Assembly (NCBI GenBank): GCA_963742735.1
Contig: CAVUMN010000002.1
Span: forward strand, 128,001 to 192,000
DNA from: an uncultured Actinomycetes bacterium
GTDB lineage: Bacteria; Actinomycetota; UBA4738; JBBDTT01
Reading direction: 5' to 3'
Length of the DNA: 64,000 bases
This document shows positions 6,940-35,340 of this stretch, piece by piece. A program made the position numbers and the translations under genes. Position 1 is the first letter of the stretch. Every line of letters begins with the position of its first letter. Below the pieces are notes generated by a model. It made no database searches and was not told where the DNA came from. It was given only the letters and a program-made list of their open reading frames with translations.

Positions 6940-6966
6940 GTGGGCAGCCTATTGGCTGCCCACATG
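6937..6966. terminator. Perfect 13-bp hairpin downstream of cspA
   Basis: CATGTGGGCAGCC-TATT-GGCTGCCCACATG. Confidence 0.6.
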
Positions 6967-6993
6967 CGTTGGGTTGCTACTTGAGCGGGATGC

Positions 6994-7206
6994 TCAGGCG
7001 GCGCTGGAAGGACGGACGTTGTTCGCCTGCGGGCCCTTCTGGCCCTGGCTGACGTCGTACTCGACCTTCTGGTTCTCCTCGAGGTTGCGGTACCCCTCGC
7101 CCGAGATCGCGCTGAAGTGCACGAAAACGTCGGCGGTTCCGTCGTCGGGGGTGATGAAACCGAAGCCCTTCTCTGCGCTGAACCACTTCACGGTGCCAGT
7201 TGCCAT
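6994..7206 (-). CDS. cspA: Cold-shock protein
   Basis: [15 protein letters not shown] (RNP1), DVFVHFSAI (RNP2). Confidence 0.95.
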
Positions 7207-7232
7207 GTGCTGTTCTCCTATCTGACTGCTGA

Positions 7233-7334
7233 CTACTTCGCTTGCTTGCCCTTCTTCGCCTTGCGCTTTTCCTTCAGGCTCTTCTGGGCGGTCTTCTTAC
7301 TACTTTTGGTTCCTCCCTTGTCCTTGTTGGCCAT
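7233..7334 (-). CDS. 33-aa lysine-rich small protein
   Basis: [33 protein letters not shown] preceded by GAGGAGAGGAG SD; directly upstream of cspA. Confidence 0.6.
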
Positions 7335-7356
7335 GAGGACTCCTCTCCTCGAGTGG

Positions 7357-7548
7357 CTAGGCCTTGCCGCCGGTGCGCCGGGCGGCCGCCGGGTTCGGGC
7401 CCCAACCGCGGTGGATCCCACACTCGTCGCTCGCGTTGTAGCGCGACAGCTGTGTGTCGCACACCGAACAGGTCCGACCTTGCCCGTAGGACTTCATGGG
7501 ACGGTCGTTGCTGCCGGCCAGAGCGCCGATGCTGTGGGTTCGTTTCAT
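7357..7548 (-). CDS. 63-aa putative Zn-binding small protein (CxxC...CxxH)
   Basis: MKRTHS...GRTCSVCDTQLSRYNASDECGIH; GGGAGG SD upstream; same strand as cspA cluster. Confidence 0.55.
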   Translation of the reverse strand: MKRTHSIGALAGSNDRPMKSYGQGRTCSVCDTQLSRYNASDECGIHRGWGPNPAAARRTGGKA

Positions 7549-7671
7549 GCGATCGGGTCTCCTCCCCAAGCACCCGGGGTTCGGGAGCCGTAGGAAGAGC
7601 CTACCGCGTTTTGGCCCTCCCTCGCCCCGAGCGACGAACCCGCGCCGGATCGGCCCTAGACTCGACGCGCC

Positions 7672-19984: not shown

Positions 19985-20431
19985 CTATGCCTCGTTGAAG
20001 AAAGCTCCCCCGAACCGCGGCCGAAGCTGATTGGCCAAATTGTCCGCGGTAACGGCGACATAGTCCACCGCGACCTCGAGCTCGTCGTCGTCGAGGGTAT
20101 CTCCGAGTAGCGAGTAGCCGAACGACAGGAGAGGCCTCTCTCCCTCGACCGCTAGTGCGAGTGCACCGAAGGCGAAGTCTGTGTTCGACTGCATGGCAAC
20201 GTAGCGGATCAACTCGTCTGTGATGGGCAGGTCTCGAAGGATCGGCGCGAAGACTTGGACTCGGGTGTACTGCTGGTCGAATACCTCGTCGACAAGTACG
20301 AACAGCCAGGTCGTCTCAACCATGGTCGGAACCGCGAGGCCCCCCTCGTCCGTCCAAAACGTCGACGGATACCGGCTCTGGAGCCGGTCGTGGATTCGCG
20401 CAAGAACGTCTCGTGCAGAACTCACCCTCAC
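19985..20431 (-). CDS. YbjN / T3SS-chaperone-like (CesT fold) protein
   Basis: VQVFAPIL..., FAFGAL, YSLLGDTLDDDEL..AV..VAVTAD..L..RFGG. Confidence 0.7.
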   Translation of the reverse strand: MRVSSARDVLARIHDRLQSRYPSTFWTDEGGLAVPTMVETTWLFVLVDEVFDQQYTRVQVFAPILRDLPITDELIRYVAMQSNTDFAFGALALAVEGERPLLSFGYSLLGDTLDDDELEVAVDYVAVTADNLANQLRPRFGGAFFNEA

Positions 20432-20458
20432 CCACCAGGTCTGCGGCCTAGCCAGCGC

Positions 20459-20608
20459 TCAGGTCCACCCTTTGCCCCCACACGTGGTGCACTTGCCGTT
20501 CCCTCCGCATCGGCTGCAAGAGAATGTACTGGGCCATTGATGAATCCTTCCAGTACCTCCGCACTTCTTGCAGTCCCCTGATGCGCCACAGCTGCCGCAC
20601 TTGGCCAA
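20459..20608 (-). CDS. 49-aa DnaJ-type zinc-finger mini-protein
   Basis: MAKCGSCGASGDCKKCGGTGRIHQWPSTFSCSRCGGNGKCTTCGGKGWT: four CxxC repeats, three exact CxxCxGxG; TTG start with GAGAGGA SD; missed by the ORF track. Confidence 0.75.
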   Translation of the reverse strand: MAKCGSCGASGDCKKCGGTGRIHQWPSTFSCSRCGGNGKCTTCGGKGWT

Positions 20609-20749
20609 ATCGGGTTCCTCTCGTTACATCCGTCGGAGTCGAGGCTACGTCCTGTCGCAGGTTCTGGTCAACGAAGGTACGGTATGCCCACCAACGGGCG
20701 CGGCGGTGGGGACCTTGCGTTCGAGCCCGGCGCTGGACATGCTTCAGGT

Positions 20750-21388
20750 GTGAACGAGGCAGGCGGATCCGCCCAGCGCCGCTACGAGCGGGAACGGGAA
20801 AAGCTCGACGCGTCGTTGCCGGCAAGCCGCTTCTGGCGATCCGTAACGAAACTCGGCTCGGACTATGAACGCCGCCTCAGATACGCAGAGGCCTGGGGAA
20901 AAGGCGCCGAGGGGGAGCGACGGACGGCGGAAGCGCTCCGACCACTCGAGGCCGAAGGCTGGATCCTTCTAAACGACCTCCCGCTTCCAGAGCGGAAGCG
21001 CGCGAACATCGACCACGTCCTCATCGGACCACCCGGCGTCTTCGTGATCGAGACCAAGAATTACAAGGGCCGCGGCCGCGTCGAGCGCTCACGGCTCGTC
21101 ATCAACGGGCGTGATCGCAAGCGAGATCTCGAGGAAGTCTGGCACGAGGCCGGAGCGGTTCAGTTTCTGTTGCGGGTTCAGCTTGCCAATGTCGGCCTGG
21201 ACGTCCGAGCCGTGCTCTGCATCCACAACTCCAGCCTCGAGGGAGGCTGGTTTCGTGAGCCCGAGATCGATCAGGTCCGGATCGCTTCACCCAAGAGGCT
21301 TGTGGCGTGGGTTCGATCTCAGCCGGCGAGGCTCAGTTCCGCCGACGTCCAGTCTCTCGCAGAGACACTCGCGATAGCCCTCCGCTGA
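20750..21388 (+). CDS. NERD-domain nuclease
   Basis: GAEGE, NIDHVLIGPPGVFVIETKNYKG. Confidence 0.85.
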   Translation: MNEAGGSAQRRYEREREKLDASLPASRFWRSVTKLGSDYERRLRYAEAWGKGAEGERRTAEALRPLEAEGWILLNDLPLPERKRANIDHVLIGPPGVFVIETKNYKGRGRVERSRLVINGRDRKRDLEEVWHEAGAVQFLLRVQLANVGLDVRAVLCIHNSSLEGGWFREPEIDQVRIASPKRLVAWVRSQPARLSSADVQSLAETLAIALR

Positions 21389-21404
21389 AGATCATGTCTT
21401 GGAA

Positions 21405-21840
21405 TCAGGAGACGTACGCCCTCCGGACCAAGGCGGGCGTCCAGGCACTGTGGCCATGTGGGCGGGCCACCTTTGTGTTCCTGTTGAGCGACTCCGCGAT
21501 CTCGTCAAGAGATTTGTGACTCTCGAGGAGCGTTCTGATCCGACTACGCCAGCCCCAGTCGCTTCTGTTACACATGACGTGGGCCAATCGGGCGTTGCCC
21601 GGGGTTCGCTTCCCCGGCCATCTCGGGGACTGGATAATGGTCGAGGTTGGGTTCCCAGTCACCCTCGTTCGGGGTTCGTTCGTCGAAGTGCCGACGGCCT
21701 TTTGGGCAGTAGCACTGCGGCATCTCGCATGCGAACTCCAGCAGCTGGCCCCACTCGGCCATCTGCACGAGTACGCCGTGCAACCCCTTCGCGCGCATGG
21801 CGCCTGCCAGATCTGATGGCGACGCCGATTTCTCAGGCAT
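21405..21840 (-). CDS. HNH nuclease-like protein with C-terminal recombinase-type helical domain (frameshift near 21620)
   Basis: CEMPQC..NLDHYPVP in one frame continues as GNARLAHVMCN..SLDEIAESLN..WTPALVRR in another. Confidence 0.65.
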
Positions 21841-21881
21841 CAGTCCTCCTCTTCAGCAAGGTGGGCGAGCTGTAACCCTTT

Positions 21882-24170
21882 CTAGTCGATCGGCCCTTGG
21901 GCCACCCGCGCCAGGACGCCTTGCTTGAAGAGCTCCAGGTCAGATTCGTCGTGGATGTTGCCCGCGACACGCGTGGTTCTGAAGCGCGCGCTGGATGGGT
22001 CGCTCAGTTCCTCGAGAGTCGAGTCCGCTGGGTGGCGCCCTATGAGCCAGAAGTGAACCCATTTCTTGGCGAAGTAGTAACCGCCCAGCCAGCGTTTGCC
22101 GGCGTAGAAGGAATGATGCGACCGAGCGTTGTGAATGACCTCGAGACCGGCTTCCATCAGCCACTCCTCGATACCGTCCACAGCATCCCGAACGAATTCG
22201 GTGGCCGCATAAGCTCTCAGCGCCACGTGCGAAGTTGGCGGAGTCGAGTTGCTAGAGAGCCCCTCCTCCGCTTCTCCGACCTCTTCCTCCGCCTCGGGGG
22301 GCGCCTGGAAGCTCAGCCCGTCCACACCGAGAGAATTCCAGAAGGGATCGGTTGGCCCAGGCCACAGCGACAGGAAACGGGCCGCAAGTTGCTGCCCGCG
22401 CTCGAGGATCGTCGACTCGTTCCACGATCCCGCGTACTCGTTCACTAGATCCTTGTTGAGGAACAGGACTGTGTGATCGCCCAAGGTCTCGCGCTTCTGG
22501 ACCCAAGCCGCGTTCGACAGAGTTGGATTGAGCTTGTGCGTGACCAGCGTCAGGTTGCCGAGTGAGTGCTTCAGGTTGTCGCGATTAGCGGTCGCCTCGA
22601 CGACGTTGACATCTGCTGGCAACGGCCAGTGCGGCTCCCAGCTCTGAGGGAGCACGTGCTCGATAGTGAGGACCCGCGGGACATGCGCTTCCTCGCTCTT
22701 GCCAGGGGAGCGAAGCGAGTCCTCGAGTGCCTCGAGGATCATGCGGAGCCGGCCTCTGCTCACCACCTTGTAGATGGGCAACGACAGCAGCGCGTCACGA
22801 ACCTGCTCGTCGGAGGGCCAGACCTGACTCTCTCCTTCGAGCCGGGCGAGAAACTCCACTGTCACATCGCCGGCGCGTGCCGGGTCCTTTGCGACCTCGC
22901 CGAGCAGCGAGAGGAATACCACGTTGTAGTTCTTTGTCGTCATCCGGCAGACGATTCGCCTGATGAGCCAACTCTCGACCGCCCGGGTGAGCCGCGTTCG
23001 CTGTTCTCCGGAGACCTCAGCCTCGGGATGTCCGAGAACGAACAGCAAGAGAGGGTTCGCCGTCGCGGTCTCGGTCATGCGAAGCCGGTAGAAGAAGGTC
23101 TCTTCCGGGCTGCCCGGTGGATGGAGATCGAATCCGCGGTACGTCTTCGCATGGTGGTCGATGTCCTTGAGGATGCCCTCCGGATCGTTAGTCTCGGCTG
23201 CGAACCGGCGGAACTGGGGGAAGAGCTCGTGCAGGCCGAGCTCCCGACCCCGGCGCATGGTGAGCCAGTGGAAGAAGAAGACGTCCAGCCGCGGCCGCGT
23301 AAGGCGACCCTGCGCGATCGACTCCCTCCACCAGTCAGTGTCGAGCGACCTCCAGTGTGACTCATAGAGGTCACCCATCGGCAGGCGACGCTCCGAGGCC
23401 AATCTAAAGAGCGAGTTCTTGATGAGGTCTGAAGCCAGGAGGGGTGTGCCCCGCGCGTTCAGCGTCTCGAAGATGACCTGCGCGTTGTCGTTCGGCTCGA
23501 GGTCGATTACTACCAGGCGCAGAAGCTGCCATAGGACTATGCGAAGAGCGTCCAGTCGTTCCGTCACGGAAGTATCGGGTGATTCGCTGAGCCACTCTCG
23601 GATCGCGGAGGCAAAGTATGTGTGTGCTTGGAAGATCGACGACTGGGAGAGATTCGCCAGATCGTCGCTTCCCCGCTCCTCCTTCTTCATCGTGGTGCCG
23701 AAGACGGCCTGATCGATGTTCGTTGGCCACACCTTGAAGCGATCGATGGAGCTGCGGATCAGGTCGGGGTCGTTGTCCGTCAATTTCCCAAACAGCTTCG
23801 TGCTCCCATCACCGGCTTCGGCGGCCACATCGGCTGCCGCGTCAAGGAAGAGTTGCAGCGTCGTTAGGCGTTGCTGCCCGTCGATGATGTTGCGCTGCTC
23901 GATCATGCCGGCCCCAAAGGGGAGTTGCTCGACCACGATTGCGCCGAGGAAGTGGGAAGGCGTTAGCGCCTCCGGCGTACCCTGGCTGGTGTCCTCCTCC
24001 GAAGCGACCGACCGTGCTGTGATCAGATTCTCGGCAACGGTCCGCAAGTCGTCCCATAGGGGTTCCCAGTGTTCCTCGCGGTTCCAGACGTAAGGACGCT
24101 GAAACAAAGGGACGATGTATGTCACCGGTTTGTTGAAGAGATTGGTGAGCGTCAGCGTGTCGGCTTTCAT
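21882..24170 (-). CDS. GmrSD-family type IV restriction enzyme (DUF262 + DUF1524) with extra C-terminal domain
   Basis: PLFQRPYVW, IIDGQQRLTT, IFETLNARG, TIEHVLPQ, LGNLTL..N. Confidence 0.9.
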   Translation of the reverse strand: MKADTLTLTNLFNKPVTYIVPLFQRPYVWNREEHWEPLWDDLRTVAENLITARSVASEEDTSQGTPEALTPSHFLGAIVVEQLPFGAGMIEQRNIIDGQQRLTTLQLFLDAAADVAAEAGDGSTKLFGKLTDNDPDLIRSSIDRFKVWPTNIDQAVFGTTMKKEERGSDDLANLSQSSIFQAHTYFASAIREWLSESPDTSVTERLDALRIVLWQLLRLVVIDLEPNDNAQVIFETLNARGTPLLASDLIKNSLFRLASERRLPMGDLYESHWRSLDTDWWRESIAQGRLTRPRLDVFFFHWLTMRRGRELGLHELFPQFRRFAAETNDPEGILKDIDHHAKTYRGFDLHPPGSPEETFFYRLRMTETATANPLLLFVLGHPEAEVSGEQRTRLTRAVESWLIRRIVCRMTTKNYNVVFLSLLGEVAKDPARAGDVTVEFLARLEGESQVWPSDEQVRDALLSLPIYKVVSRGRLRMILEALEDSLRSPGKSEEAHVPRVLTIEHVLPQSWEPHWPLPADVNVVEATANRDNLKHSLGNLTLVTHKLNPTLSNAAWVQKRETLGDHTVLFLNKDLVNEYAGSWNESTILERGQQLAARFLSLWPGPTDPFWNSLGVDGLSFQAPPEAEEEVGEAEEGLSSNSTPPTSHVALRAYAATEFVRDAVDGIEEWLMEAGLEVIHNARSHHSFYAGKRWLGGYYFAKKWVHFWLIGRHPADSTLEELSDPSSARFRTTRVAGNIHDESDLELFKQGVLARVAQGPID

Positions 24171-24854
24171 CGGGCCTCCGATGGGCGACTGCATTTCCAA
24201 TCCCGCTACAGGTTAGGTCTACACCCTTTTCGACAACACCGCCCCTCGGAAGTCGGCCCCGCCGTCGTAACTGTCGCGTCGAACCGCCTCCCCCAGAGTC
24301 CCGACGAGATTCAGTGGGGGTATTGGGCGCCGGATGATCTCCCGGTGTTCCCGCCAATGGGTTGACAGATGACAAGGCTACGAATCGAGCGCGATTCGTC
24401 GTCCGAGGTGGGGACATTCCGACGGAGGACGGGTGAATGGCAGCGCCCTCGGGGTGGGGGGATGGGTACGCGGAGATGGACCCTACTCTTTCTCCACCAG
24501 GCGTAGAAGCCGTGTTCCGCCGAAAACCCGTGGGAAGTCTAGGACGGATTGCTAGGTCTCTCCGCCGAGCGCTTCGTAGTGATCCAAACAGCTTCCGGGC
24601 TCTCGGCAAGGCATGTCCTAGCCTCGAAGGGTGAACCGGAACGCCCGCTTGAATCCGTTCGGCTCCCCAGCTGAGCCAGGAATGCCGTCCATGGCTTCGG
24701 GGATGCGGTCACTCAGTCGCGCCATACTGTTACAGCTCGACGTCGCAAGTCGGTCGCCCCGCGATCGGGCGCACGCGGGGGAAGGGGGCCCTGATCAGCA
24801 CCGAGAACGCCGAAACGCCGACCCCGACCCAGCGATTCTCCCCATCACCGCGGG

Positions 24855-25508
24855 CAGATCAAGACGCGTGACCGGGTTCGCGAGTTGGCGGAGGTCTATA
24901 CACACGAGCGTGAGGTCAACGCGATGCTCGACCTCATCCCAGACATGTTCGCCCCTGGTGTTGCGGCCACCGATATTAAGTTCCTCGAACCCGCCTGCGG
25001 CTCGGGCAACTTCCTGGAGGAAGTCCTACGTCGCAAGCTACGCAATATCCGATTCAGAGCCGTCCGCTCCGTCGGCGCCTATGAACACCGCATCCTGCGG
25101 GCAGTCGCCTCCATCTACGGTATCGATATCTCCGCGGAAAACGTCGCGGAGGCACGGGACCGTCTTGTCTCCGCCGTCCGGACGCACTACTACAACGATG
25201 CCAACAGCATCGAACCGACTGCTGGGTTCGTCTCCGCTGTCCGTGCCGTCCTCGACACGAACATCCTCAACGCGGATTTTCTTGCCGACGCTGCCACAAT
25301 CGAGATCGTCGACTACCAACCGATTCGTGGCGGATACTTCAAGCGAGTCTGGTCGATGCTGGACGGGTCGGCTGTGGTAGCAATACAACCGAGCCTATTC
25401 CAGCAGGAATCCGGGCCCAAGCAGGACGAGACACCGATCAAGTACCTTGATCTCACAATAACTCCACGGCCCACTCGCAAGGATGGGTCGACGCGGAGGA
25501 GCGCTTGA
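24855..25508 (+). CDS. Short SAM-binding DNA methyltransferase-like subunit
   Basis: QIKTRDRVRELAEVYT, FLEPACGSGNFL, IYGIDI; no NPPY-type motif; true start uncertain (possible indel upstream). Confidence 0.75.
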   Translation, partial: QIKTRDRVRELAEVYTHEREVNAMLDLIPDMFAPGVAATDIKFLEPACGSGNFLEEVLRRKLRNIRFRAVRSVGAYEHRILRAVASIYGIDISAENVAEARDRLVSAVRTHYYNDANSIEPTAGFVSAVRAVLDTNILNADFLADAATIEIVDYQPIRGGYFKRVWSMLDGSAVVAIQPSLFQQESGPKQDETPIKYLDLTITPRPTRKDGSTRRSA

Positions 25509-27058
25509 TGCCACAGGTGCTGGGCTTTTCGCACGTTCCCGACATCCTCGATTGCCTCGCTCAGCTGTCAAACGATGAGGTGCCCACGCCGCCCAGACTG
25601 GCACGGGCTATGCTCGACATCCTGCCCACCGAGGTGTGGTCCGACCCGAATCTCAAGTGGCTGGACCCATGCTCCAAGTCGGGAATCTTCCTCCGCGAGG
25701 TCGCCGCCCGACTGCTGGAAGGCCTTGGCGAGTGGGAGCCCGACTTCGAGAGGAGGCGGGACCATATCTTCCGCCAGATGCTATTTGGCACATCCATCAC
25801 GGAGATGACTGGCGTGATTTCTCGGCGCACCGTCTATTGCTCTCGCGACGCAGCGGGGGAACAAAGCGTCGTCGATGTCACCGACGAAGTGGGCAACCTG
25901 CCCTTCATTCCGGCGGAGCACGTCTTTCGGAAGGGCCCAACGACTACGTCGTGCGCCGTTTGCCGGGCACCGACTCAACTCGAGCGTGGCGACAGGCGGG
26001 AGAACTACGCCTATTCATTCATCCATGGGGCATATCCGACGAAGGAGATGAAGAACATGAGGTTCGACGTCGTGGTAGGCAACCCGCCTTACCAGATCGA
26101 CGATGGTGGCCACAACGCCAGCGCGACCCCGATCTACCACTTGTTTGTGCAGAAGGCCATCGAGCTGGACCCCAGATACGTCCTGATGATTACGCCGTCT
26201 CGCTGGTTTGCCGGCGGGAAGGGACTCGAGAAGTTCCGCAGAAGAATGCTCGCGGATAGACACCTTCGGACACTGGTCGACTACCCGAAGCTCTATGACG
26301 GATTTCCAGGTGTGAAGATTCGTGGAGGCGTCTCGTACTTTCTCTGGGATCGGCACCACGATGGCCCCTGCTCCGTGCAGACAATGTGGGATGGCGAACC
26401 ACTCGGACCACCTGTCGAGCGGTATCTGGACGTTTACGACGTGATCGTGCGAAGAAATGAAGCTGTATCCGTGTTGGAGAAGGTGCGCGCATTTGTGGCC
26501 GGAGGATCACCTGAACCGACACTCGAGAGCAAGGTATCCTCCATGAAGCCCTTTGGTCTTCGAACGTACTTCCACGGCGAAAACAGCCCGGCCGGAATGA
26601 CGGATCCCGTGAAACTCTTTGGGTCTCAGAAGGTGACCTGGTTGGAACGAGACGCCATTCCTCTGAATCAGCCTTGGATTAACGACTGGAAAGTGTTGGT
26701 CAGCCGGGTCCAGGGAACCAGTTCTGCTGTGGAGACGCAGTTCCTCGGGCAACCAATCGTCGCGGGTCCAGGTACTGCCTGCACCGAGACCTATCTCGTC
26801 GCTGGTCGGTTCCAATCAGAGGAGGAGGCGGAGAGATATGCGGCCTACCTGCGCACTCGATTCGTCCGCTTCCTTGTGTCGCTGAGGAAGTCGACACAAG
26901 ACGCGGCCCGCGGTGTCTACGCATTCATTCCCGATCTCCCAGTCGACCGAGTCTGGACCGACGAGATGCTCTACAAGCGATATCGGCTGACGAAGAGCGA
27001 GGTCAGCTTCATCGATTCCCAGGTGAGGGAGATGGCTGCGCCCGACCAGTCGGGTTAG
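25508..27058 (+). CDS. Eco57I-like N6-adenine DNA methyltransferase with TRD
   Basis: SNDEVPTPP, LDPCSKSGIF, FDVVVGNPPYQ, MITPSRWFAGGKGL. Confidence 0.85.
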   Translation: MPQVLGFSHVPDILDCLAQLSNDEVPTPPRLARAMLDILPTEVWSDPNLKWLDPCSKSGIFLREVAARLLEGLGEWEPDFERRRDHIFRQMLFGTSITEMTGVISRRTVYCSRDAAGEQSVVDVTDEVGNLPFIPAEHVFRKGPTTTSCAVCRAPTQLERGDRRENYAYSFIHGAYPTKEMKNMRFDVVVGNPPYQIDDGGHNASATPIYHLFVQKAIELDPRYVLMITPSRWFAGGKGLEKFRRRMLADRHLRTLVDYPKLYDGFPGVKIRGGVSYFLWDRHHDGPCSVQTMWDGEPLGPPVERYLDVYDVIVRRNEAVSVLEKVRAFVAGGSPEPTLESKVSSMKPFGLRTYFHGENSPAGMTDPVKLFGSQKVTWLERDAIPLNQPWINDWKVLVSRVQGTSSAVETQFLGQPIVAGPGTACTETYLVAGRFQSEEEAERYAAYLRTRFVRFLVSLRKSTQDAARGVYAFIPDLPVDRVWTDEMLYKRYRLTKSEVSFIDSQVREMAAPDQSG

Positions 27059-27062
27059 ATCC

Positions 27063-29572
27063 GTGGCGAATCGCATCTATGCCTATACCGTCGTAGGGAA
27101 GGACAGCGAGCCGTGGGAACGCACGGTCGGACAAACGCACGTCACCGGTGTTGGGTTCATCAAGGTGGGACAGACGACCAAGCCCACCGCCCGAACCCGT
27201 ATCAAGGAGCAACTCGGCACGGCCTATCCCAGCTTGGACGGTGTGACAATCCTCCTAGATCAGCCCGCTGCGCGTGCTGATGGCACTGAGTTCTCGGATC
27301 ACGATGTACATGATGCCCTCGTGGCCGCCGGCATCAAACGACAGGGCGGTGAATGGTTCGAGGCAACGCTGGATGAGGTCAGGGCGATTATCAACGCCGT
27401 CGCCAAGGGAAGGACGTTTGATCCGAAGCGTACGGAGTCCTTCCAGATGCGTCCCGAGCAGCAGCGAGCCGTCGAGGTCACCTCTGACTACTTCAAAGCT
27501 CAATCGGTGGGCCCATCGAGAAGGGCTCCCAAGTTCCTCTGGAACGCCAAGATGCGCTTCGGTAAGACCTTCGCGACCTACCAGTTGGCCGTGAGAATGG
27601 GGTGGAAGCGGATCCTGGTCCTTACCTATAAGCCGGTCGTGCAAAGCCAGTGGCGCGACGACCTACTCACACACATCGACTTCGACGGTTGGCGATTCGT
27701 CGACCGTGAGACCCACATCGGAGAGCAGGACGACTTGGTTGCCGGACCGAATCCGCTCGTTTGGTTCGCATCCTTCCAAGACCTCTTCGGCACGACTCCC
27801 GAGGGGGGCACCAAGCCGCACAATGACAAGCTCTACGTGATCAACTGGGACTGCATCGTCCTGGACGAGTACCACTTTGGAGCTTGGCGTGACTCGGCTC
27901 GTGACCTCTATGACCCCACAGACGAGGCGGTCGCCGAGGCGGAGGAACCTGACGAATGGGTGACCGAGGAGGATCTCGGGCTGAGAGTAGGCACTACCTC
28001 TACCTCTCGGGGACGCCGTTCAGGGCAATTACCAACGGCGAGTTCACCGAGGACGCCGTCTTCAACTGGACCTACGTAGACGAGCAGGCGGGGAAGCAAG
28101 GCTGGGACGAAAAGGCGCCCAACCCTTACGCCGAGCTGCCTCGCATGGAAATGTACGCCTACGAGATGAGCCAGGAGGCCGCCGTTTGGGCCGCGGGCGG
28201 CGAATTCAGCGGGTTCTCGCTCAACGAGTTCTTCAAGGCAAAGAGCGCGCACTCGAGTGGCACCGTCGCAGGGGCTGGTGCCTATGTGTTTGAGAGCCCG
28301 ACCCAGGTGTCAGAGTTCCTTGCCATGCTTCGCGGCAAGTTGTCTGATCAGATGAAGTCGTTAATCGTCGCTGGCCAGAAGCCCCCCTTTCCCTACGAGT
28401 CGGTTGGCTTCAAGAAGGCGGTGACACACTCCGTTTGGTTCCTCCCTGACGTAGCTTCATGCTTCGCCATGGGGGACTTGCTGAGGGTGGACCCCTACTT
28501 CTCTGCTTTCGAGATCGTGGTTTCCGCCGGCAGCAGCGGTGGGCAGGGCGCCGCGGCGAAACCTCCTGTCGAAGTAGCGATCGGAAAGGCTATGAAGGCG
28601 GGTGCGGGTTCGATCACCCTGTCCTGCGGAAAGCTCATGACCGGTGTGACAATCAGGGAGTGGGGGGCCATCCTCATGCTCCGCTCGTTGAAGTCACCCG
28701 AGTCATACTTCCAAGCCGCCTTTCGCGTGCAGTCGCCCTGGGCCTACAGAAACGCTGTAGGCGATCTCGATGTACAGAAGGACGTCTGCTACGTGTTCGA
28801 GTTTGATCCGAATCGCGCACTCTCCCTTGTGGCGGAGTATGGAATCCGTCTGGCCAGTTCGGGTGACGTCACGCCGTCCGAGGCCATCGGGCAGTTGCTC
28901 AACTACCTGCCCATATACGGTTTCGCGGGTGGCGCGATGACCCAATTGGACGCCTCTGCGGTTCTCGACTGGGCCACGGCCGGCATCGGAGCAACGGCCC
29001 TGGCGCAACGGTGGAATTCGCCGCTGTTAGTAGAGGTGAACGAACACACCCTGGCCGCTGTGCTGGATCACCCGCAGCTATTGGAGGCTCTGGAGCAAAT
29101 CGAAGACTTCCGAGCGCTGGTGCACAACGCCGAGTATGTCGTGACCTCCACGAGGCTCCTCAAGAAGGCAAAGCGAGAGCAAGGTGGCAAGCTCGATTCG
29201 GATCAGCAGAAGCAGCATCGTGAAACGGCTAGTCGGCGCAAGGAGATCCGAGAGAAGCTTCAGAAGTTCCTAGCCAAGCTCCCGGTGTTCATGTACGCGA
29301 CCGACTTCCGAGAAGAGGCCGTGAAGCATGTGATTGAGTCGCTGGACTCTGCTCTCTTCGAGCGGGTGACCGGTCTAACCGTTGATGACTTCAAGCTGCT
29401 CAACCAGATCGGCCTTTTCAACGCCCAACACATGAACGCTGCGATCTATCAGTTCAAGTCTTTCGAGACGGCCAGCCTCCACTACGCGGACGGCGCCTCT
29501 GAGGAGGAGGTTGAGGACAGGATTGGGCTCTGGGATCGCAGCATAGAAGCCTCCGAGCTTCCCTCCGGCTAG
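27063..29572 (+). CDS. GIY-YIG (T5orf172-like) nuclease - SF2 helicase restriction subunit (frameshift near 27985)
   Basis: IYAY..IKVGQT..RTRIKEQ..EWF; AKMRFGKT, LDEYHFG, YLSGTPF, MTGVTI..W, YFQAAFRVQSP. Confidence 0.8.
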
Positions 29573-29581
29573 CCGCGAGGC

Positions 29582-29630
29582 ATAGCGTCGACACTCAGTC
29601 GCTCCTAGTGAGTAATCGACAAACGGCTAT
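29582..29630. terminator. Imperfect hairpin between convergent R-M and HerA genes
   Basis: Nested ATAGC/GCTAT, TCGA/TCGA and ACTCA/TGAGT arms. Confidence 0.35.
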
Positions 29631-29665
29631 CTCTGGGTTGCGGGCATGTTCTCTACTCTTCCGAT

Positions 29666-31801
29666 CTAGGGCGGAGCCATAAGTCGATCAGGGTCCTTCT
29701 CGGGCCTGTATGGAATCTCAACGATGACGGGTCGCTCGCTTCTGATCGCCTTGCCGAACACGACGGCATTGAGCTGAGGCAAGTCCCGGAGAAGCTCGGC
29801 ATGCGCCCGTCCATAGACACTCGCGAGAAAGCTAACGCTCGTTTCATCGAAACTGCTGAGGGCCAGGATGGTGTTGCATTGCGTTAGAACATTCTTCGTG
29901 ACGGTCGCTGTGCGCTGGGCGACCACGAGCAAGCCAACACCGTACTTTCGACCCTGTAGGGCGATCTGGGAAATCTTTCCAACGACTCCGCGAGAGTCAT
30001 AGTCGCCTAGGCCCATCGTCGACGCTTCGGGCATTACTGTATGCGCCTCCTCCACCACCAGGAGCACACGGGGGCAGTCATCTGGGTGTTGTTTCGCATA
30101 TCTGAGCAGGCAAGATAGATACAGCTCAGTGATATGAAGAGTCGCCTTGGTGTTGGAGATTTCGTTTAGCGAGATTGTTCCGACTCGATCGCCGCCCTCA
30201 GTGGAGGTCAAGAATCCCTCGATCATCTGCTCGACGTCTTTGGTCAATTCCCCCCGGAATTCCTCCAAGGCCCGTTTCTCGGTCCCTGCCCCATACTGGC
30301 CGGTCTCTACGTCGAAGAGCCGCTCGCCCAGCCTGCGTGCCAGGTCGTCCGAGATGGTCAGATCCCGCGGTGTCACGTCCTGCAATCGCGCTGGGTACTT
30401 CGCAGTAAGGTCTATACAAAGGACCTTGATTCCCTGGTGCACGCAGTGGCGAATAAGTTCGAATGCGAGTTCCGTTTTGCCTGATCCGGTTACGCCCAAG
30501 ATTGCGGTGTGGAAGTCCAGTGTCTTGACGAAGGGGCCTGAGATAGGGACGCCGCTTCCGGGAACAATCCCGAATACGAAGTCACCCTCTGGAATCTCAT
30601 TTCCTTCTCCCAAGTCGGGCGAAGCAGCGAAGACAGCGGAATTCATGGTCGGCAACCAAGCCGCCTTCACGAAACCTCGATGGCGGGTCAGGACCCCTAG
30701 CTGAGCGGCGATCGCGTACTGTGAGCCGAGTCGGTCCGACTCAAGAGACTCCTCCCGCGTCACGCCTTCCATGACCTGGTAGTAAACCGTCTGGCCTGAG
30801 ACGCGGCACGATACAAGCAGGCCTTCCCGACAGAGCTCCTCACGCCACGTCTCAAAGCGGATCTCTCCGATGTTGGAATTCTCGATGACGAATCCGAGCA
30901 ATTGGGAGCCGGGTGTTCCGCCGAGTGCCTCGGCGATGGTCTCTCTGTCAGGCCGGTCAGCATCCGTGAGGGCATAGACAGAGCCACCGATTAGGCCTGG
31001 GATTGACTCTCCCGGACGTTTTGCTATGAGCCCCGTCCCGATTGCTTGTTGATCCCGCACCTGTCTGTACAGGGGCACGAGGAAATGCTGATGACCGTCC
31101 CCGTCCTGATATAGGCGTGGGGTTTCTTCCGTCCATCCCGCGCCAGGTCGAAGCGCGACACGAACTAGGTTTGGCCACTCGCTCAGGGTTACACGTCCCA
31201 GGGCCTCTAGCGTCTCCTTCGGTGCTCTGCGTCTGCTCAAGAATTGCGGAACTCTGAGGGGCCACAAAGCGACGAAGAGTCCCCAAAACACAACGAGCCA
31301 AGCCGTTTCGCGGGATCGCGAACCGTAGAAGGAGAATACGGCGAACAGAAAGACCACTGACTGCAGAAGTCGAGCCCTACCAAGGAGAACAGCAGGTTGA
31401 TAGGTGGCGGCCGCGACTCGCTTTCGCCAGCCCGTGAGATCCGGTCCCGTGCTAACGACGATGCACGTCGAAGCCATGAAGAAGACCACGACGCAGTAGC
31501 TGGTCACCAGCCACCAGCCCAAGCGTGGAGCTGAGCGGTAAACCGTGACGAGAGTGATTATTCCTGCCAACGCATTTACAGCGGAGTCTGCTGGGCGAGT
31601 GAACTTGTGTTCCAGAATTGCTGAGCCGAGCACCACCAGAAGCAGTCCTCCTTGAAAAACGGCGGACTCCTCCGGCCGCCTCGGCACCCACGCGCCCGTG
31701 AGAATTCGCGCGAGAACGGCGGCCACGCCGAGCGTCGTGAGCATTATCAAGACGCGAACCCACGGGGCGACGTACTCCTCCCGTTGGGCCTGTCGGGCCA
31801 T
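29666..31801 (-). CDS. Multi-TM HerA/FtsK-family ATPase (DUF87)
   Basis: About 6 hydrophobic helices in the first 185 aa; HAS-barrel-like middle; HTAILGVTGSGKT, LVVEEAH, GRKYGVGLLVVAQR. Confidence 0.85.
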   Translation of the reverse strand: MARQAQREEYVAPWVRVLIMLTTLGVAAVLARILTGAWVPRRPEESAVFQGGLLLVVLGSAILEHKFTRPADSAVNALAGIITLVTVYRSAPRLGWWLVTSYCVVVFFMASTCIVVSTGPDLTGWRKRVAAATYQPAVLLGRARLLQSVVFLFAVFSFYGSRSRETAWLVVFWGLFVALWPLRVPQFLSRRRAPKETLEALGRVTLSEWPNLVRVALRPGAGWTEETPRLYQDGDGHQHFLVPLYRQVRDQQAIGTGLIAKRPGESIPGLIGGSVYALTDADRPDRETIAEALGGTPGSQLLGFVIENSNIGEIRFETWREELCREGLLVSCRVSGQTVYYQVMEGVTREESLESDRLGSQYAIAAQLGVLTRHRGFVKAAWLPTMNSAVFAASPDLGEGNEIPEGDFVFGIVPGSGVPISGPFVKTLDFHTAILGVTGSGKTELAFELIRHCVHQGIKVLCIDLTAKYPARLQDVTPRDLTISDDLARRLGERLFDVETGQYGAGTEKRALEEFRGELTKDVEQMIEGFLTSTEGGDRVGTISLNEISNTKATLHITELYLSCLLRYAKQHPDDCPRVLLVVEEAHTVMPEASTMGLGDYDSRGVVGKISQIALQGRKYGVGLLVVAQRTATVTKNVLTQCNTILALSSFDETSVSFLASVYGRAHAELLRDLPQLNAVVFGKAIRSERPVIVEIPYRPEKDPDRLMAPP

Positions 31802-31920
31802 CTTTGAACCCCTTCGAGGGTCGTTACCCCGTAGTCTTGCAGTTCCCCTGAGATCTACGAGCCCGGCCGCGTGGATAAACTCAGCTTCAGCGCTGCGACG
31901 AGACCGGGAGGCTTCCCTAA

Positions 31921-32728
31921 ATGACCAAGTACGTCTACGACTTCTCTGAAGGTAATCGCGACATGAAGGACCTCCTTGGGGGGAAGGGGGCCCAACCTTG
32001 CGGAGATGACCAACCTCGGGCTGCCGGTGCCGCCTGGGTTCACCATCACTACTGAGGCTTGCCTCACCTACCTCAAGGAGACGACTTCCCGGCCGGCCTT
32101 CTCGACGAGGCTTCGACGCACCTCGCCACCCTCGAGTCCACCATGGGCCGCAAGCTCGGCGACCCGTCTAACCCTCAGCTCGTCTCCGTTCGCTCCGGGG
32201 CCAAGTTCTCCATGCCGGGGATGATGGATACCGTCCTCAACCTCGGGCTCAACGATCAGTCAGTTGAGGGACTGGGCGAAGCAGTCCGAGCGACCTTCGC
32301 TTCGCGCGCGACGCGTATCGCCGCTTCATCCAGATGTTCGGCAAGATCGTGCTCGACATCCCCGGCGACAAGTTCGAGGAGGTCCTCGACCACGCCAAGG
32401 AGGCCGCCGGCGTCAAGACCGACCCCGAGCTGAACCCCGACCAGCTCGCCACCCTCATCGAGTCCTTCAAGCAGATCATCCGCGACGCGACCGGCTCCGA
32501 CTTTCCGCAGGACCCGCGCGAGCAGCTGCGCCAGGCCATCGTCGCCGTCTTCTCCTCCTGGAACGGCGACCGCGCCATCGCGTACCGCCGCCAGAACAAG
32601 ATCTCCGATGATCTCGGGACCGCGGTCAACGTCCAGGCCATGGTGTTCGGCAACATGGGCGAGGACGTGGTCGCCGGCATCCGCAACACCTTGCGCATCG
32701 CCGAGCTCGGGTCCATCAACAAGGCGGC
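31921..32728 (+). pseudogene. Degenerate 5' fragment of ppdK
   Basis: Colinear with 36230-37126 from the ATG, with synonymous changes, indels and a 90-bp internal deletion; ends abruptly. Confidence 0.9.
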
Positions 32729-32784
32729 ATGACCCGCGACCGGCTCGTACGTCTGCAGCCGCGTCTCTCCGGCCGCTGGATCGC

Positions 32785-35340
32785 CTAAGCGTCGATCCGC
32801 TCCAGGCCGAGCTCCAGGGCATCGTCCGACTTCAGCCCCCGGCCGGCGACGAGCTCGCGCTCGAAGACTTCGTCCGACAGCGCGGCCCGCGCGTCTTGCT
32901 CCCACCCCTGCTCGATCTCGGCGATCTGCGGCCACGGGATCAGTCCCAGGGGTCGGCGGACCGCGTCGCACGCGCCGAGCATCTGCGCGGCGCGCTCCGG
33001 GGCGTCCTCCGCGAGGGCCAGGCCCGCCAGGCACGCCAGGACGTAGCCGGTCCCGGCCCGCGAGTCGATGTCCCGGTATCGCGCCACGGCCAGCCGCAGG
33101 TGCTCGCGCGCCTCGTCGAGCTCCCCGGCGCGCACCGAGTCGACGGCGAGGTGGTAGTGCGACTCCGCCTGCATGTTCACGTCGCCGAGCGAGCGGCCGA
33201 GCGACAACGCTTCGGCGTGCGCCGCCTTCGCCGCGGCGACGTCGCCGTCGTTGAGGAACAGGTCGCCCTGGTGTGACCGCGCGTAGGCAAGGCCGACCAT
33301 GTCGCCCGCCGCTCGGAACGTCCCCGCCGCCGACTCGAACTCCGCTCGCGCGGGGCCGTCCGGGTCGTACGGCCTGGACACGGCGAGGATCAGCTGCAGC
33401 ATCCCGGCGCGCTTCGGATCGCCGATCTCCTCCCACGCCGCGAGCGCCTTCGGCCCGAAGGTCGTCAGCTCCTCGTACCGAGACGACGTGAACAGACGTC
33501 CAGCCTGCATCCAGTGGACCATCGCCCAGTCGCGCGGGGTCATCGCCCGCGCCGACGGGGAGCCCTCCAGGACCGCGCTCAGGTCCGGCAACCGCTGGAG
33601 GCCCACCCGGATCTGCCAGAAGACCCACGCCGCGCCCATCGGATCGAGGATCGGCCCGACCGATCGGCCGGTCTCGATCAGCCACCCGAGGACCGCGAAC
33701 AGGTTCCCGACCTCGCCGTCGAGCCGCAGCACGGTCTCGGTCTGCTCGGCCGTGTGCAGCCGCGGGGCCTCCGCCCCGAACACCTCCATCAGACGCTCGT
33801 GCAGGTTCTCGAACACCCGGTCTCGGTCGCCGGAGGTGTCCAGCCGCGCGGACGCGTACGTGCGCACGATCTCGAGCATCCGGAAGCCCGGCTCGCCGTC
33901 CGGACGCTCGCCGACGGAGACCAGGCTGTGATCCACCAGCGTGGACAGATCCTCGACGACGTCATCCGCGTCCCACCCGCACACCGCCTCGACCGCGTCC
34001 AGCGTGAACGCCCCGCGAAAGACCGACGCTCGCTCGAGCAGCCGCCGAGCGGACGGGGTGAGCAGGCCGTAACTCCAGTCGAGCGTGGCCGCCAGCGTCT
34101 GCTGGCGCTCCGGCAGGTCGGCGAAGCCGCCGGCCAGGTCGAGCCGGCTGCCCAGGCGTTCGAGCACCTGCTCGGGCGAGAGCATGCGGAGCTGGGCGCT
34201 GGCCAGCTCGAGGGCCAGCGGCAGCCCGTCGAGCCGGCGCGAGAGCTCCGCGATCGCGGCCGCGTTGCGGGGCGTCACGTCGAAGGACCGCCGGACGTCG
34301 CGAGCCCGCTCGATCAGCAACGACGTCGCCGGTGCCGTCTCCACCTCCGCGGCCTCCGCCGAGCTCGGCAGCGCGAGCGGCAAGACCGGCCATTCGCGCT
34401 CCCCGCGCAGGCGCAGGACCGCGCGGCTCGTCACCACGACGTGGACATGCGGGCACCGGTGGAGGAGCTCGGCGAGCTCGTCGCCGGCCGCGACGACCTG
34501 CTCGAAGTTGTCCAGCAGCAACAGCATCCGCTTGCCCGCCAGCCGCCGGACGATCGCCTCGAGCGCGGGCTCGGTTCCCTCCGGCCGCACCCCGCACGCG
34601 GCGGCGACGGCGTCGAGCACGCGCGCCGGATCGAGCGTGGTGGTCAGGTCGACCCACGCCACCCCGTCGGTCCACCGGTCGCGCGTGCGCTCGGCGACCG
34701 CCAGGGCGAGCCGCGTCTTCCCGATGCCCCCAACCCCCGTCAGCGTCACCAGCCGCGTTGTGCCGTCGGTGAGGGTCTCGATGAGCCGCTCGACCTCCTC
34801 GTCGCGCCCGACCAGGCGCGTGACCGGCTGCGGGGGAGCGGCGAGCGGGCTCCCCGGCGCGCTCGGCGCCGCGAAGCGCTCGGTCAGCATGACCACGAGG
34901 TCGTCGGCCAGCAGGACGCGCAGCTCGCCGGCGTCGGCGAACGACTTGTACGAGACGTCCTCGGATTGCAGCTCCGTGAGGAGGTCCTTCAGCCGGGGCT
35001 CGATCTCGGGCGCCGGGCGCTTCAGGTACATCAGGCGCGGCATCGCGGCCCCGAGCCGGAACTCGTCCTCCAGCCCGGAGATCTCCATGTCCGGCCCGAC
35101 CCAGCCGTAGCGCTGCCAGTAGATCCCAACGAAGACGTCGGACTGTTCGAGGTAGGCGCGGTACAGGGCCCGCGGCGGATGCGGCCGCGCGCCGAGCTCG
35201 AACATGACCGGCGTCAGCCGCAGTCCCTCGATGGCCTCGCGCGCCGCGGCACGCTCGTCGGCCAGCTCGCCGAGCGTCGACGAGACGAACACGCGGAGCC
35301 GCTGATCCGGCGTTCGGATGCCCGCCGTTTCCTCGTCCAT
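32785..35340 (-). CDS. DUF4062 / NB-ARC (STAND) ATPase / TPR protein
   Basis: LRVFVSST..ER..SDVFVGIY; GVGGIGKT, LLLDNFEQ, LDGLPLALELA; TPR-like C-terminus. Confidence 0.85.
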   Translation of the reverse strand: MDEETAGIRTPDQRLRVFVSSTLGELADERAAAREAIEGLRLTPVMFELGARPHPPRALYRAYLEQSDVFVGIYWQRYGWVGPDMEISGLEDEFRLGAAMPRLMYLKRPAPEIEPRLKDLLTELQSEDVSYKSFADAGELRVLLADDLVVMLTERFAAPSAPGSPLAAPPQPVTRLVGRDEEVERLIETLTDGTTRLVTLTGVGGIGKTRLALAVAERTRDRWTDGVAWVDLTTTLDPARVLDAVAAACGVRPEGTEPALEAIVRRLAGKRMLLLLDNFEQVVAAGDELAELLHRCPHVHVVVTSRAVLRLRGEREWPVLPLALPSSAEAAEVETAPATSLLIERARDVRRSFDVTPRNAAAIAELSRRLDGLPLALELASAQLRMLSPEQVLERLGSRLDLAGGFADLPERQQTLAATLDWSYGLLTPSARRLLERASVFRGAFTLDAVEAVCGWDADDVVEDLSTLVDHSLVSVGERPDGEPGFRMLEIVRTYASARLDTSGDRDRVFENLHERLMEVFGAEAPRLHTAEQTETVLRLDGEVGNLFAVLGWLIETGRSVGPILDPMGAAWVFWQIRVGLQRLPDLSAVLEGSPSARAMTPRDWAMVHWMQAGRLFTSSRYEELTTFGPKALAAWEEIGDPKRAGMLQLILAVSRPYDPDGPARAEFESAAGTFRAAGDMVGLAYARSHQGDLFLNDGDVAAAKAAHAEALSLGRSLGDVNMQAESHYHLAVDSVRAGELDEAREHLRLAVARYRDIDSRAGTGYVLACLAGLALAEDAPERAAQMLGACDAVRRPLGLIPWPQIAEIEQGWEQDARAALSDEVFERELVAGRGLKSDDALELGLERIDA

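Follow-up and report, generated by a model that had tools for sequence, protein, structure and literature searches.

A HerA ATPase joined to a membrane domain

The 64,000-nucleotide stretch of DNA analyzed here (the window; contig CAVUMN010000002.1 of an uncultured Actinomycetes bacterium, positions 128,001 to 192,000) harbors on its reverse strand a complete gene whose product, hereafter membrane HerA, combines an N-terminal membrane domain with a HerA-type ATPase (Table 1). The gene is an intact, horizontally acquired member of a widespread and unnamed single-gene family with a new architecture, in which the HerA motor and a conserved membrane module are fused and function, or at any rate spread, as one gene, and which, judged from its sequences and their settings, is a strong anti-phage candidate. 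The open reading frame (ORF) starts with ATG, stays open over 711 codons and has a purine-rich stretch a few bases 5' of the start; a scan for promoter and terminator consensus sequences around the gene gave nothing above shuffles. As a first-pass annotation of the window had described, the gene lies in a low-GC block together with GmrSD and restriction-modification (R-M) genes, which is borne out by composition (56-64% GC over ~20.0-32.0 kb vs. 66-75% in the flanks) and by Pfam and PADLOC domain calls. The same annotation had seen no co-oriented partner, and none was found: membrane HerA is convergent with the R-M operon on one side, and the closest upstream gene on the same strand, which encodes a STAND NTPase (32785-35340), is 984 bp away and separated from it by a pseudogene remnant; this gene has the native GC content of 72% and is not conserved elsewhere.

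By fold, the protein's soluble part falls into the HerA clade of the FtsK-HerA superfamily, with the HAS barrel, the RecA-like core and the helical bundle all present. In the AlphaFold model, which was built with 30 homologs (mean predicted local distance difference test, pLDDT, 78.6), residues 200-420 are beta-rich and are followed by an alpha/beta ATPase with helical insertions that extends to residue 700. When this model was compared with the PDB by Foldseek, the top matches were exclusively HerA proteins, aligned over 443-575 columns to whole HerA chains. The best of these is Sulfolobus HerA (4d2i_A, E 5e-19, 465 columns on a 464-residue chain, HAS barrel included, from query residues ~200-711), and the others are SIR2-HerA (8wld, 8wod), DUF4297-HerA (8zit, 8xaw, 9c1n) and HerA-NurA (9x1m), so that the beta-rich, HAS-barrel-like middle proposed from the translation is confirmed by secondary structure and fold alike. 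A hexameric ring with a central DNA pore would be expected from this fold.

Pfam sees merely the P-loop neighborhood of the motor: DUF87, the HerA central domain, scores 26.3 bits (cut-off 23.2) and covers residues 414-473 alone, TrwB_AAD_bind remains at 18.6 bits, below its cut-off of 20.5, and CedB, CedD and TraD give weak, P-loop-only matches in Pfam and NCBIfam; FtsK_SpoIIIE has no Pfam match at E ≤0.01. The HerA motifs that had been read as complete are all located at checked coordinates and are invariant or nearly so in 30 members. The invariant positions in the 30-sequence alignment comprise G436, T438, G439, G441, K442 and T443 of Walker A, V583, E585, A586 and H587 of Walker B, Q616-Y620 around R618, and Q629-R630, R618 being a putative trans-acting arginine finger by analogy with HerA structures. 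The C-terminus lies ~10 residues beyond the ATPase core, and there is no C-terminal DNA-recognition domain.

The membrane domain is conserved and specific to the family

A Kyte-Doolittle scan detects 5-6 hydrophobic segments within residues 10-188, and the AlphaFold model places N-terminal helices at 13-35, 43-62, 69-85, 93-117, 125-140, 143-159 and 164-179. The mean number of Lys and Arg residues per loop alternates along the domain (1.13, 0.23, 1.61, 0.35, 3.84, 0.32 and 2.65 in 31 members), which by the positive-inside rule agrees with six membrane passes, with cytoplasmic N- and C-termini, and with an amphipathic helix, 125-140, on the cytoplasmic surface. The roughly six N-terminal transmembrane (TM) helices that the first-pass annotation assigned to the 711-aa product are thus recovered from the ORF call, hydropathy, the structural model and the loop charges. 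The periplasmic loops are only 6-7 residues long, which argues against sensing from the cell exterior, and the last TM helix is connected to the HAS/beta region by a linker of ~20 residues.

Conservation of the membrane domain (56% mean pairwise identity) is intermediate between that of the beta region (46%) and that of the ATPase (67%). A loop motif, EHKFT(K/R)PADSxVN, contains five residues (E64, T68, P70, D72 and N76) that are invariant in 30 sequences, and the same alignment has further invariant positions in the membrane domain at Q50, W96, Y102, G141, S148, W173 and W180-P181; Q50, E64, T68, D72, N76 and S148 are invariant polar residues in or beside membrane helices. Between the cassette-type gammaproteobacterial copies described below, six of eight pairs were computable and gave a nonsynonymous divergence (dN) of 0.03-0.08 in the membrane domain at a synonymous divergence (dS) above 1.1, where dS is saturated and the resulting dN/dS of near 0.02-0.05 is a rough value. 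Purifying selection thus acts on the membrane domain as strongly as on the motor, more than a passive anchor would need, and the proposal that the TM domain is a functional module fused to HerA gains support from its identity level, its low dN and its invariant polar residues.

A profile of the membrane domain, run against 1.84 billion cluster representatives, retrieved 666 proteins at E ≤1e-3 and 352 at E ≤1e-10. In the 149 top matches that were analyzed, the domain always begins within the first 46 residues; 50 of these proteins are 640-800 aa long, one has 1273 aa, and the remaining 98 are shorter and mostly collinear fragments of the same architecture. No extra Pfam domain was found in 12 matches with unaligned tails or unusual length. 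To the extent that sequence profiles can tell, the membrane module is exclusive to the membrane HerA family and always N-terminal. The 1273-aa protein (P0244) bears an extension of ~550 residues after the ATPase, with no match in Pfam, PADLOC or the PDB sequences.

Modeled alone, the membrane domain reaches a pLDDT of 76.5, and a VIA-align comparison with 48,161 PDB representatives gave only generic helical bundles, with a best Z of 8.2 over 78-90 residues, to designed or unrelated ones, where the background for helical models extends up to Z 13; among ESM Atlas look-alikes of residues 1-195 there was no usable match. Complex prediction with four copies of the domain scored 0.00, which says neither for nor against self-association.

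Table 1. Coordinates of membrane HerA and its parts, of other features in the window, and of attC sites and neighbor classes in homologous loci (window positions unless a locus number is given)
Feature	Position or loci	Strand	Evidence or remark
Membrane HerA gene, complete (P0001, 711 aa)	29666..31801	-	ORF and translation; full-length homologs at 50-65% identity
N-terminal membrane domain, aa 10-188; six TM helices and one amphipathic cytoplasmic helix, N-in/C-in	31238..31774	-	Hydropathy, AlphaFold, Lys+Arg counts
Loop motif EHKFT(K/R)PADSxVN between TM2 and TM3, cytoplasmic	31571..31612	-	Alignment; side inferred from positive-inside pattern
Beta-rich region including HAS barrel, aa 200-420	30542..31204	-	Secondary structure, Foldseek
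RecA-like HerA ATPase core with helical-bundle insertion, aa 421-700	29702..30541	-	Pfam DUF87, PADLOC HerA and mad8, fold matches
Walker A GVTGSGKT	30473..30496	-	Translation-checked
Walker B VVEEAH	30041..30058	-	Translation-checked
GRKYG with putative arginine finger R618	29939..29953	-	Translation-checked; finger role by analogy with HerA structures
AQR motif	29912..29920	-	Translation-checked
Low-GC acquired block	20000..32000	.	Composition, Pfam, PADLOC
NERD protein	20684-21388	+	Pfam/PADLOC
GmrSD	21882-24200	-	Pfam/PADLOC
Eco57I-like methyltransferase	25505-27058	+	Pfam/PADLOC
Split T5orf172/superfamily 2 helicase gene	27063-29572	+	Pfam/PADLOC
attC of the HerA cassette	L015:2801-2875, L018:10103-10178, L020:2704-2779, L022:10113-10187, L026:10116-10190, L046:10102-10176		Model R1
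Loci with R-M or defense domains (19)	L002, L004, L005, L007, L009-L016, L018, L023, L027, L031, L033, L039, L040
Loci with only toxin-antitoxin, transposase/integrase or lone nuclease/helicase (11)	L001, L006, L008, L019, L021, L034, L035, L036, L041, L043, L046
R-M gene directly upstream	L002, L005, L010, L012, L023, L027		Gaps 13-154 nt
R-M gene directly downstream	L004, L039		Gaps 168 and 118 nt

A widespread accessory family without a conserved partner

A search of 5.8 billion proteins returned 329 matches, the best 120 of which are 686-752 aa long and 49-67% identical to the query at 95-100% query coverage, membrane domain included; the few named members are labeled 'DUF87 domain-containing protein', 'ATP-binding protein' or 'hypothetical protein'. 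A locus search with the single protein as query recovered no relative, and an alignment-based scan was needed instead, which, with one genome per species, identified 50 loci (designated by L numbers), 46 of them with most of the gene. According to the names of the genome records, the family spreads over more than 10 phyla, the loci being assigned to Chloroflexota, Acidobacteriota, Binatia, Planctomycetota, Ignavibacteria, Desulfobacterota, Gammaproteobacteria, Actinomycetota, Gemmatimonadota, Verrucomicrobiota, Omnitrophota and Saccharibacteria. Within the window's own order, the gene was present in one of 41 genomes, namely that of the window, and was not found in the 40 relatives. Membrane HerA is an accessory gene, and its settings across the family are defense islands, restriction operons, plasmids and integron cassettes; phage genomes gave no tblastn match to it.

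For the search for a partner, 630 ORFs from the 46 loci and the window were clustered by BLASTP. Besides the gene itself, no cluster was common to more than three of the 46 loci, and small flanking ORFs (≥30 aa, no more than 700 nt from either end of the gene) did not reveal a family-wide partner either; only subgroup-level DNA similarity was seen, which corresponds to an attC site and the gene's own end.

Membrane HerA as an integron cassette

Eight gammaproteobacterial copies (L015, L016, L018, L020, L022, L023, L026 and L046) encode proteins of 701 aa with 74-97% mutual identity and have conserved DNA in common just outside the ORF. In all eight, GTTATAAGCC or a one- or two-base variant lies ~50 nt 5' of the start codon, and the 5' cassette boundary TTATAAGCC is present in L015, L018, L020, L022, L026 and L046. 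In these same six copies, the upstream boundary recurs as its reverse complement, GGCTTATAAC (TTCTTATAAC in L026), ~20-35 nt past the stop codon, and an imperfect hairpin that ends in GCGTTA follows it, giving an attC site of 75-76 nt in all, with the R'' and R' core anatomy. The stem in L026 is kept via changes on both sides, and a covariance model of the six sites (R1) scores them at 97-107 bits. L016 and L023 have the 5' boundary only, and in L023 the gene stands directly behind an MmeI-type restriction gene. The covariance model had no match in the window at E ≤1.

The cassettes are parts of arrays. Further attC sites on the same strand directly follow neighboring ORFs in L022 (10756-10830 and 11740-11814) and L015 (4058-4132), where the ORF has a TIR domain, and weaker further matches occur in L015, L018, L016 and L046, so that neighboring ORFs have attC matches in four of the six cassette loci (L015, L018, L022 and L046). 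In L046 (Halopseudomonas pertucinogena) the divergent neighbor is an integron integrase (6769-7734; TIGR02249, 408.6 bits vs. a cut-off of 265), and since it adjoins the HerA cassette, the HerA gene is the first cassette of that array. The arrays span 6769-13140 in L046, 2801-5050 in L015, 10113-11814 in L022 and 2340-10862 in L018 and are chromosomal (Halopseudomonas, Marinobacterium, Marinobacter and Perlucidibaca). In L015 the HerA cassette is followed by a cassette for a 387-aa TIR-domain protein with its own attC, and most other cassette ORFs in the arrays have no family match. The attC sites of the HerA cassettes have a mean column identity of 93% across the six genera, and these non-coding recombination sites are much more conserved than the silent positions of the gene beside them, where synonymous change is saturated (dS >1).

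A typical integron cassette is a mobile unit of one gene without a promoter of its own. Complete cassettes in six gammaproteobacterial genera imply that membrane HerA is both mobilized and selected as a unit of one gene, and they are the strongest available evidence for membrane HerA acting alone; together with the lack of a conserved partner in 46 loci, they strengthen the stand-alone reading put forward in the first-pass annotation. Integron cassettes have been described, in passages of a recent preprint, to encode phage defense genes with homologs in defense islands that lack attC (bioRxiv 10.1101/2024.07.02.601719). Membrane HerA is distributed in the same way. The BRiCs of that preprint, such as Deva, are, as far as its passages describe them, likewise membrane-located, encoded by one gene and integron-borne, with homologs outside integrons in defense islands, and for Deva an interference with genome injection is proposed there (bioRxiv 10.1101/2024.07.02.601719). 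Compared by these descriptions only, BRiC proteins differ from membrane HerA in that they are small and have no ATPase.

Neighborhoods and the relation to restriction-modification

Neighboring genes were scanned with Pfam in 44 loci, using 139 ORFs (≥110 aa, up to 5 kb away; 19 loci) and 141 ORFs (≥120 aa, up to 4 kb away; 25 loci); 12 ORFs were left out owing to size limits or invalid coordinates, and L020 and L044 have no neighbor ORF that is long enough. Recognized R-M or defense domains were found within 4-5 kb in 19/44 loci and include, on the R-M side, type I hsdRMS, a type III-like pair, MmeI, Mrr and C5 methylases, and, as other defense domains, BREX BrxL, an OLD/UvrD Gabija-like pair, ThsB-TIR (Thoeris) with SLATT, other TIR proteins, HEPN, AbiEii, ApeA and Wadjet JetD. 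By the authors' own tally, defense-type domains make up ~39 of the 280 neighbor ORFs. Among the 26 loci with a protein of 46% or more identity to the query, 15 have a defense setting, a higher share than among the more distant ones. A further 11 loci have only genes of mobile elements, toxin-antitoxin pairs or single nucleases or helicases nearby (Table 1).

R-M-type genes alone lie within 4-5 kb in 13/44 loci, and in eight of the 44 an R-M gene is the immediate neighbor on the same strand, with gaps of 13-168 nt that fit co-transcription. Together with the convergent R-M operon in the window, and with a best whole-profile PADLOC match to mad8, the ATPase of a methylation-associated defense system (MADS), this placement suggests an alternative in which membrane HerA is not autonomous and serves as an accessory second-line module of R-M or BREX-type systems, for instance by holding DNA at the membrane or feeding it to a neighboring nuclease, and would confer no protection by itself. 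We regard such a dependence as unlikely: R-M genes are out of reach in 31/44 loci; the systems that do adjoin the gene are unrelated in type (type I, type III-like, MmeI, Mrr and BREX), which argues against a specific protein partner; and a dependent subunit would be useless in the six loci that carry it as a one-gene integron cassette.

Comparison with known systems

To our knowledge, every HerA-based immune system described to date is a soluble complex encoded by two genes, with HerA controlling a separate nuclease or NADase. Membrane HerA shares with SIR2-HerA (Nezha) and DUF4297-HerA ('Her' of Gao) the HAS barrel, the RecA-like core and the helical bundle (Foldseek E 3e-16 to 1e-13; 8wld, 8zit, 8xaw, 8j4u and 9c1n), and, like the anti-phage HerA complexes, it has an intact Walker A, Walker B and arginine finger and resides in defense islands. 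In contrast to both systems, it is encoded by a single gene, has no SIR2 or DUF4297 neighbor in the 44 loci or the window, and carries a fused six-helix membrane domain at the position of the effector. The NCBIfam equivalogs for anti-phage HerA score it at 51.8 bits (NF042944, cut-off 850) and 51.4 bits (NF042943, cut-off 800), and the HerA profiles of PADLOC-DB v2 match only partially, in the C-terminal half. The absence of a partner gene and NCBIfam scores far below cut-off rule out membership in either system.

The best fold match is HerA of HerA-NurA (4d2i and 9x1m), a ring translocase that acts on DNA ends. Unlike this machinery, membrane HerA is embedded in the membrane, accessory and horizontally mobile, and does not belong to a conserved repair operon; with no NurA domain among 280 neighbor ORFs and no conserved neighbor in 46 loci, membership in HerA-NurA is ruled out as well. 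The sole PADLOC profile matched nearly end to end is mad8 of MADS (E 1.4e-16, profile positions 29-297 of 314 on residues 431-694). In excerpts of its published description, mad8 is a HerA-like ATPase beside a DNA methyltransferase, and the MAD7-MAD8 pair is presented as an ATPase-nuclease module. Unlike membrane HerA, mad8 is small and soluble, belongs to an eight-gene operon and lacks a membrane domain and a HAS region. Membership in MADS is excluded, as nine neighboring proteins in the window include no mad1 or mad3-mad7 and only a weak mad2 match (E 4.5e-4, to the methyltransferase).

N-terminal membrane helices followed by a ring-shaped P-loop DNA pump are the plan of FtsK/SpoIIIE, Streptomyces TraB, VirD4/TrwB and archaeal CedB, which belong to the FtsK-HerA superfamily. 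This common plan, the weak P-loop-only matches to TrwB_AAD_bind, CedB, CedD and TraD, and the occurrence of relatives (28-38% identity, annotated 'DUF87 domain-containing protein') on seven large Bradyrhizobium/Aminobacter plasmids, four of them typed conjugative, would be accounted for if membrane HerA were a translocase for DNA transfer or uptake of mobile elements, either a one-protein pump for conjugation in the manner of actinomycete TraB or an importer comparable to the archaeal Ced ATPases, and not a defense protein. This is very unlikely on the present evidence. The closest fold is that of HerA, including a HAS barrel, which is absent from FtsK and TraB, the protein stops right after the ATPase, and no division, conjugation or Ced genes are found nearby. 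None of the 44 loci has an adjoining relaxase, type IV secretion system (T4SS), plasmid replication or spread gene, and among the 280 neighbor ORFs there is no T4SS, relaxase, coupling-protein, NurA, SIR2 or DUF4297 domain, which extends to the homologous loci the absence of T4SS genes first reported for the window. The plasmid copies are placed among Abi, restriction and insertion sequence (IS) genes and not in transfer regions: the neighbors of one copy are genes for a restriction endonuclease, an Abi-family protein, RelE and Fic as well as IS elements, and a second copy adjoins AbiEi/AbiEii and two reverse transcriptases. A T4SS coupling protein is ruled out by the sub-threshold TrwB_AAD_bind match, a TraD score (TIGR03743) of 15.2 bits against 366, and the lack of T4SS and relaxase genes; FtsK/SpoIIIE/TraB is ruled out by the missing FtsK_SpoIIIE match, the absence of a C-terminal winged-helix domain and the HerA top folds.

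The first-pass annotation had not recognized the architecture, and no model in PADLOC-DB v2, NCBIfam or Pfam names the family. Full-text literature searches for a membrane or transmembrane HerA, or for HerA or DUF87 combined with transmembrane and defense, yielded no description, the matches being limited to 'HerA-like ATPase'. HerA, DUF87 and FtsK do not occur in the main text (supplements lay outside the check) of DefensePredictor (PMC13092281), a domain-centric screen (PMC13069673), a language-model survey (10.1101/2025.01.08.631966) and the integron papers; 'HerA', 'DUF87' and 'ATPase' are likewise absent from the main text of bioRxiv 10.1101/2024.07.02.601719, and the family could sit in the supplements of discovery papers under another label.

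Proposed function and mechanism

Our preferred interpretation is that membrane HerA may be an autonomous, single-polypeptide anti-phage or anti-mobile-DNA system, a candidate reading in which our confidence is evenly divided. Judging from the fold, six copies would form the HerA ring, whose HAS face would be tethered via the linker to a ring of TM helices; as HerA proteins form hexameric rings, a total of 36 helices would then encircle the pore axis at the HAS face. Because the TM domain is joined at the HAS face, it would occupy the position that the effectors NurA, SIR2 and DUF4297 have in the soluble HerA systems.

Passages of one study describe HerA-NurA as a ring translocase acting on DNA ends and, for DUF4297-HerA, present the base of the hexamer as the presumed site of DNA entry and propose translocation towards the HAS-side effector (PMC11291478). 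By analogy with DUF4297-HerA, double-stranded DNA would enter membrane HerA at the cytoplasmic base of the ring and be pumped by ATP hydrolysis towards the HAS face, which here would be the membrane. A pre-formed closed ring would presumably thread onto free DNA ends only, so that linear invading DNA or restriction fragments would be targeted and the circular chromosome spared, and loading at ends would also give a reason for the repeated placement of the gene beside restriction systems of unrelated types.

For the output, we tentatively favor a scheme in which engagement of DNA would force the membrane ring open, the membrane potential would be lost and the infection would abort. As a second choice, and a somewhat unlikely one, DNA might be held at or extruded through the membrane ring, in which case genome entry would be blocked and the cell would survive. 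A distinctly unlikely possibility is a 'reverse injection', in which the membrane-embedded hexamer would thread onto the free end of an incoming phage or plasmid genome at the inner membrane and use ATP to pump the DNA out through the 36-helix channel; immunity would then be physical expulsion rather than cleavage or cell death, and fragments produced by neighboring R-M systems would be cleared by the same route.

If membrane HerA protects against phages, it would represent a new effector logic, with a ring DNA translocase coupled directly to the membrane, and would offer a compact unit of 2.1 kb for studying the sensing of DNA ends at the site of genome entry. The cassette copies occur in culturable gammaproteobacteria (Halopseudomonas, Marinobacterium, Chromohalobacter and Nitrincola), which makes the question directly testable.

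Observations that weigh against a defensive role

Several observations weigh against a role in defense. With periplasmic loops of 6-7 residues there is no hint of how extracellular events could be sensed, integron cassettes and variable islands carry many functions besides defense, and 14/44 loci have no recognizable defense or mobile gene nearby. The neighborhood counts are set only against a baseline of 1.5% of bacterial genes, as given in the abstract of PMC13434031, and not against matched controls. The restriction helicase gene next to membrane HerA looks frameshifted, and the island in the window may therefore be decaying. Lastly, three of those 14 loci, from Chloroflexota (L028, L037 and L042; 39-42% identical to the query), share a housekeeping-looking synteny with an APH-like kinase, a trypsin-like peptidase and a hydantoinase; this context suggests that part of the family may do something else and that the family may not be uniform, and it hints at vertical inheritance or a different role in these Chloroflexota. 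The first-pass annotation had named a predominance of conjugation or housekeeping loci as speaking against defense; no such predominance was seen, with conjugation genes in none of the 44 loci and housekeeping-looking neighbors in these three, vs. 19 with defense domains.

The loci without defense neighbors, the synteny with metabolic genes in these three Chloroflexota and the many kinds of gene held by integron arrays could also be explained by an accessory membrane ATPase unrelated to foreign DNA, which would act in stress response or envelope maintenance or in the export of proteins or polymers and would be common cargo of variable regions. This explanation is improbable to about the same degree as the dependence on R-M systems discussed above: all structural relatives above noise are DNA-translocating HerA proteins, defense and R-M neighbors are far more frequent than the baseline, and the gene, which was not found in the 40 same-order relatives, lies in a foreign-GC block of restriction genes.

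Further features of the window and of homologous loci

At the borders of the low-GC block, the window contains no convincing flanking direct repeats, no tRNA and no integrase. Within the block, two overlapping ORFs in different frames (27063-28079 and 27956-29572, forward strand) match positions 146-300 and then 342-674 of the PADLOC type IIG profile, the first of them containing T5orf172 and the start of a ResIII helicase, which looks like one gene of ~830 aa, located downstream of the Eco57I-like methyltransferase gene and disrupted by a frameshift at around 27.9-28.0 kb. Two short ORFs exactly at the block's right edge (31976-32732, forward strand) match positions 5-53 and 132-188 of PPDK_N, the N-terminal domain of pyruvate phosphate dikinase, and represent a broken gene remnant. 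The STAND NTPase beyond it is encoded on the reverse strand and comprises 851 aa with DUF4062, NB-ARC and TPR domains; it has no PADLOC match and may be an Avs-like sensor encoded immediately beyond the acquired block.

In the homologous locus of Leifsonia (L031, ~7300-10068), the homolog is present as two ORFs of 233 and 508 aa, probably owing to a frameshift, and adjoins an Mrr-like nuclease and two C5 DNA methyltransferases. Two Acidobacteriota loci (L002, 10190-13902; L010, 9016-12735) carry the same set of genes after a type I R-M system and membrane HerA, consisting of an IrrE-like M78 peptidase, a large helix-turn-helix protein, a JAB protein and a ThiF/E1-like protein, and this set may be a further conflict system.

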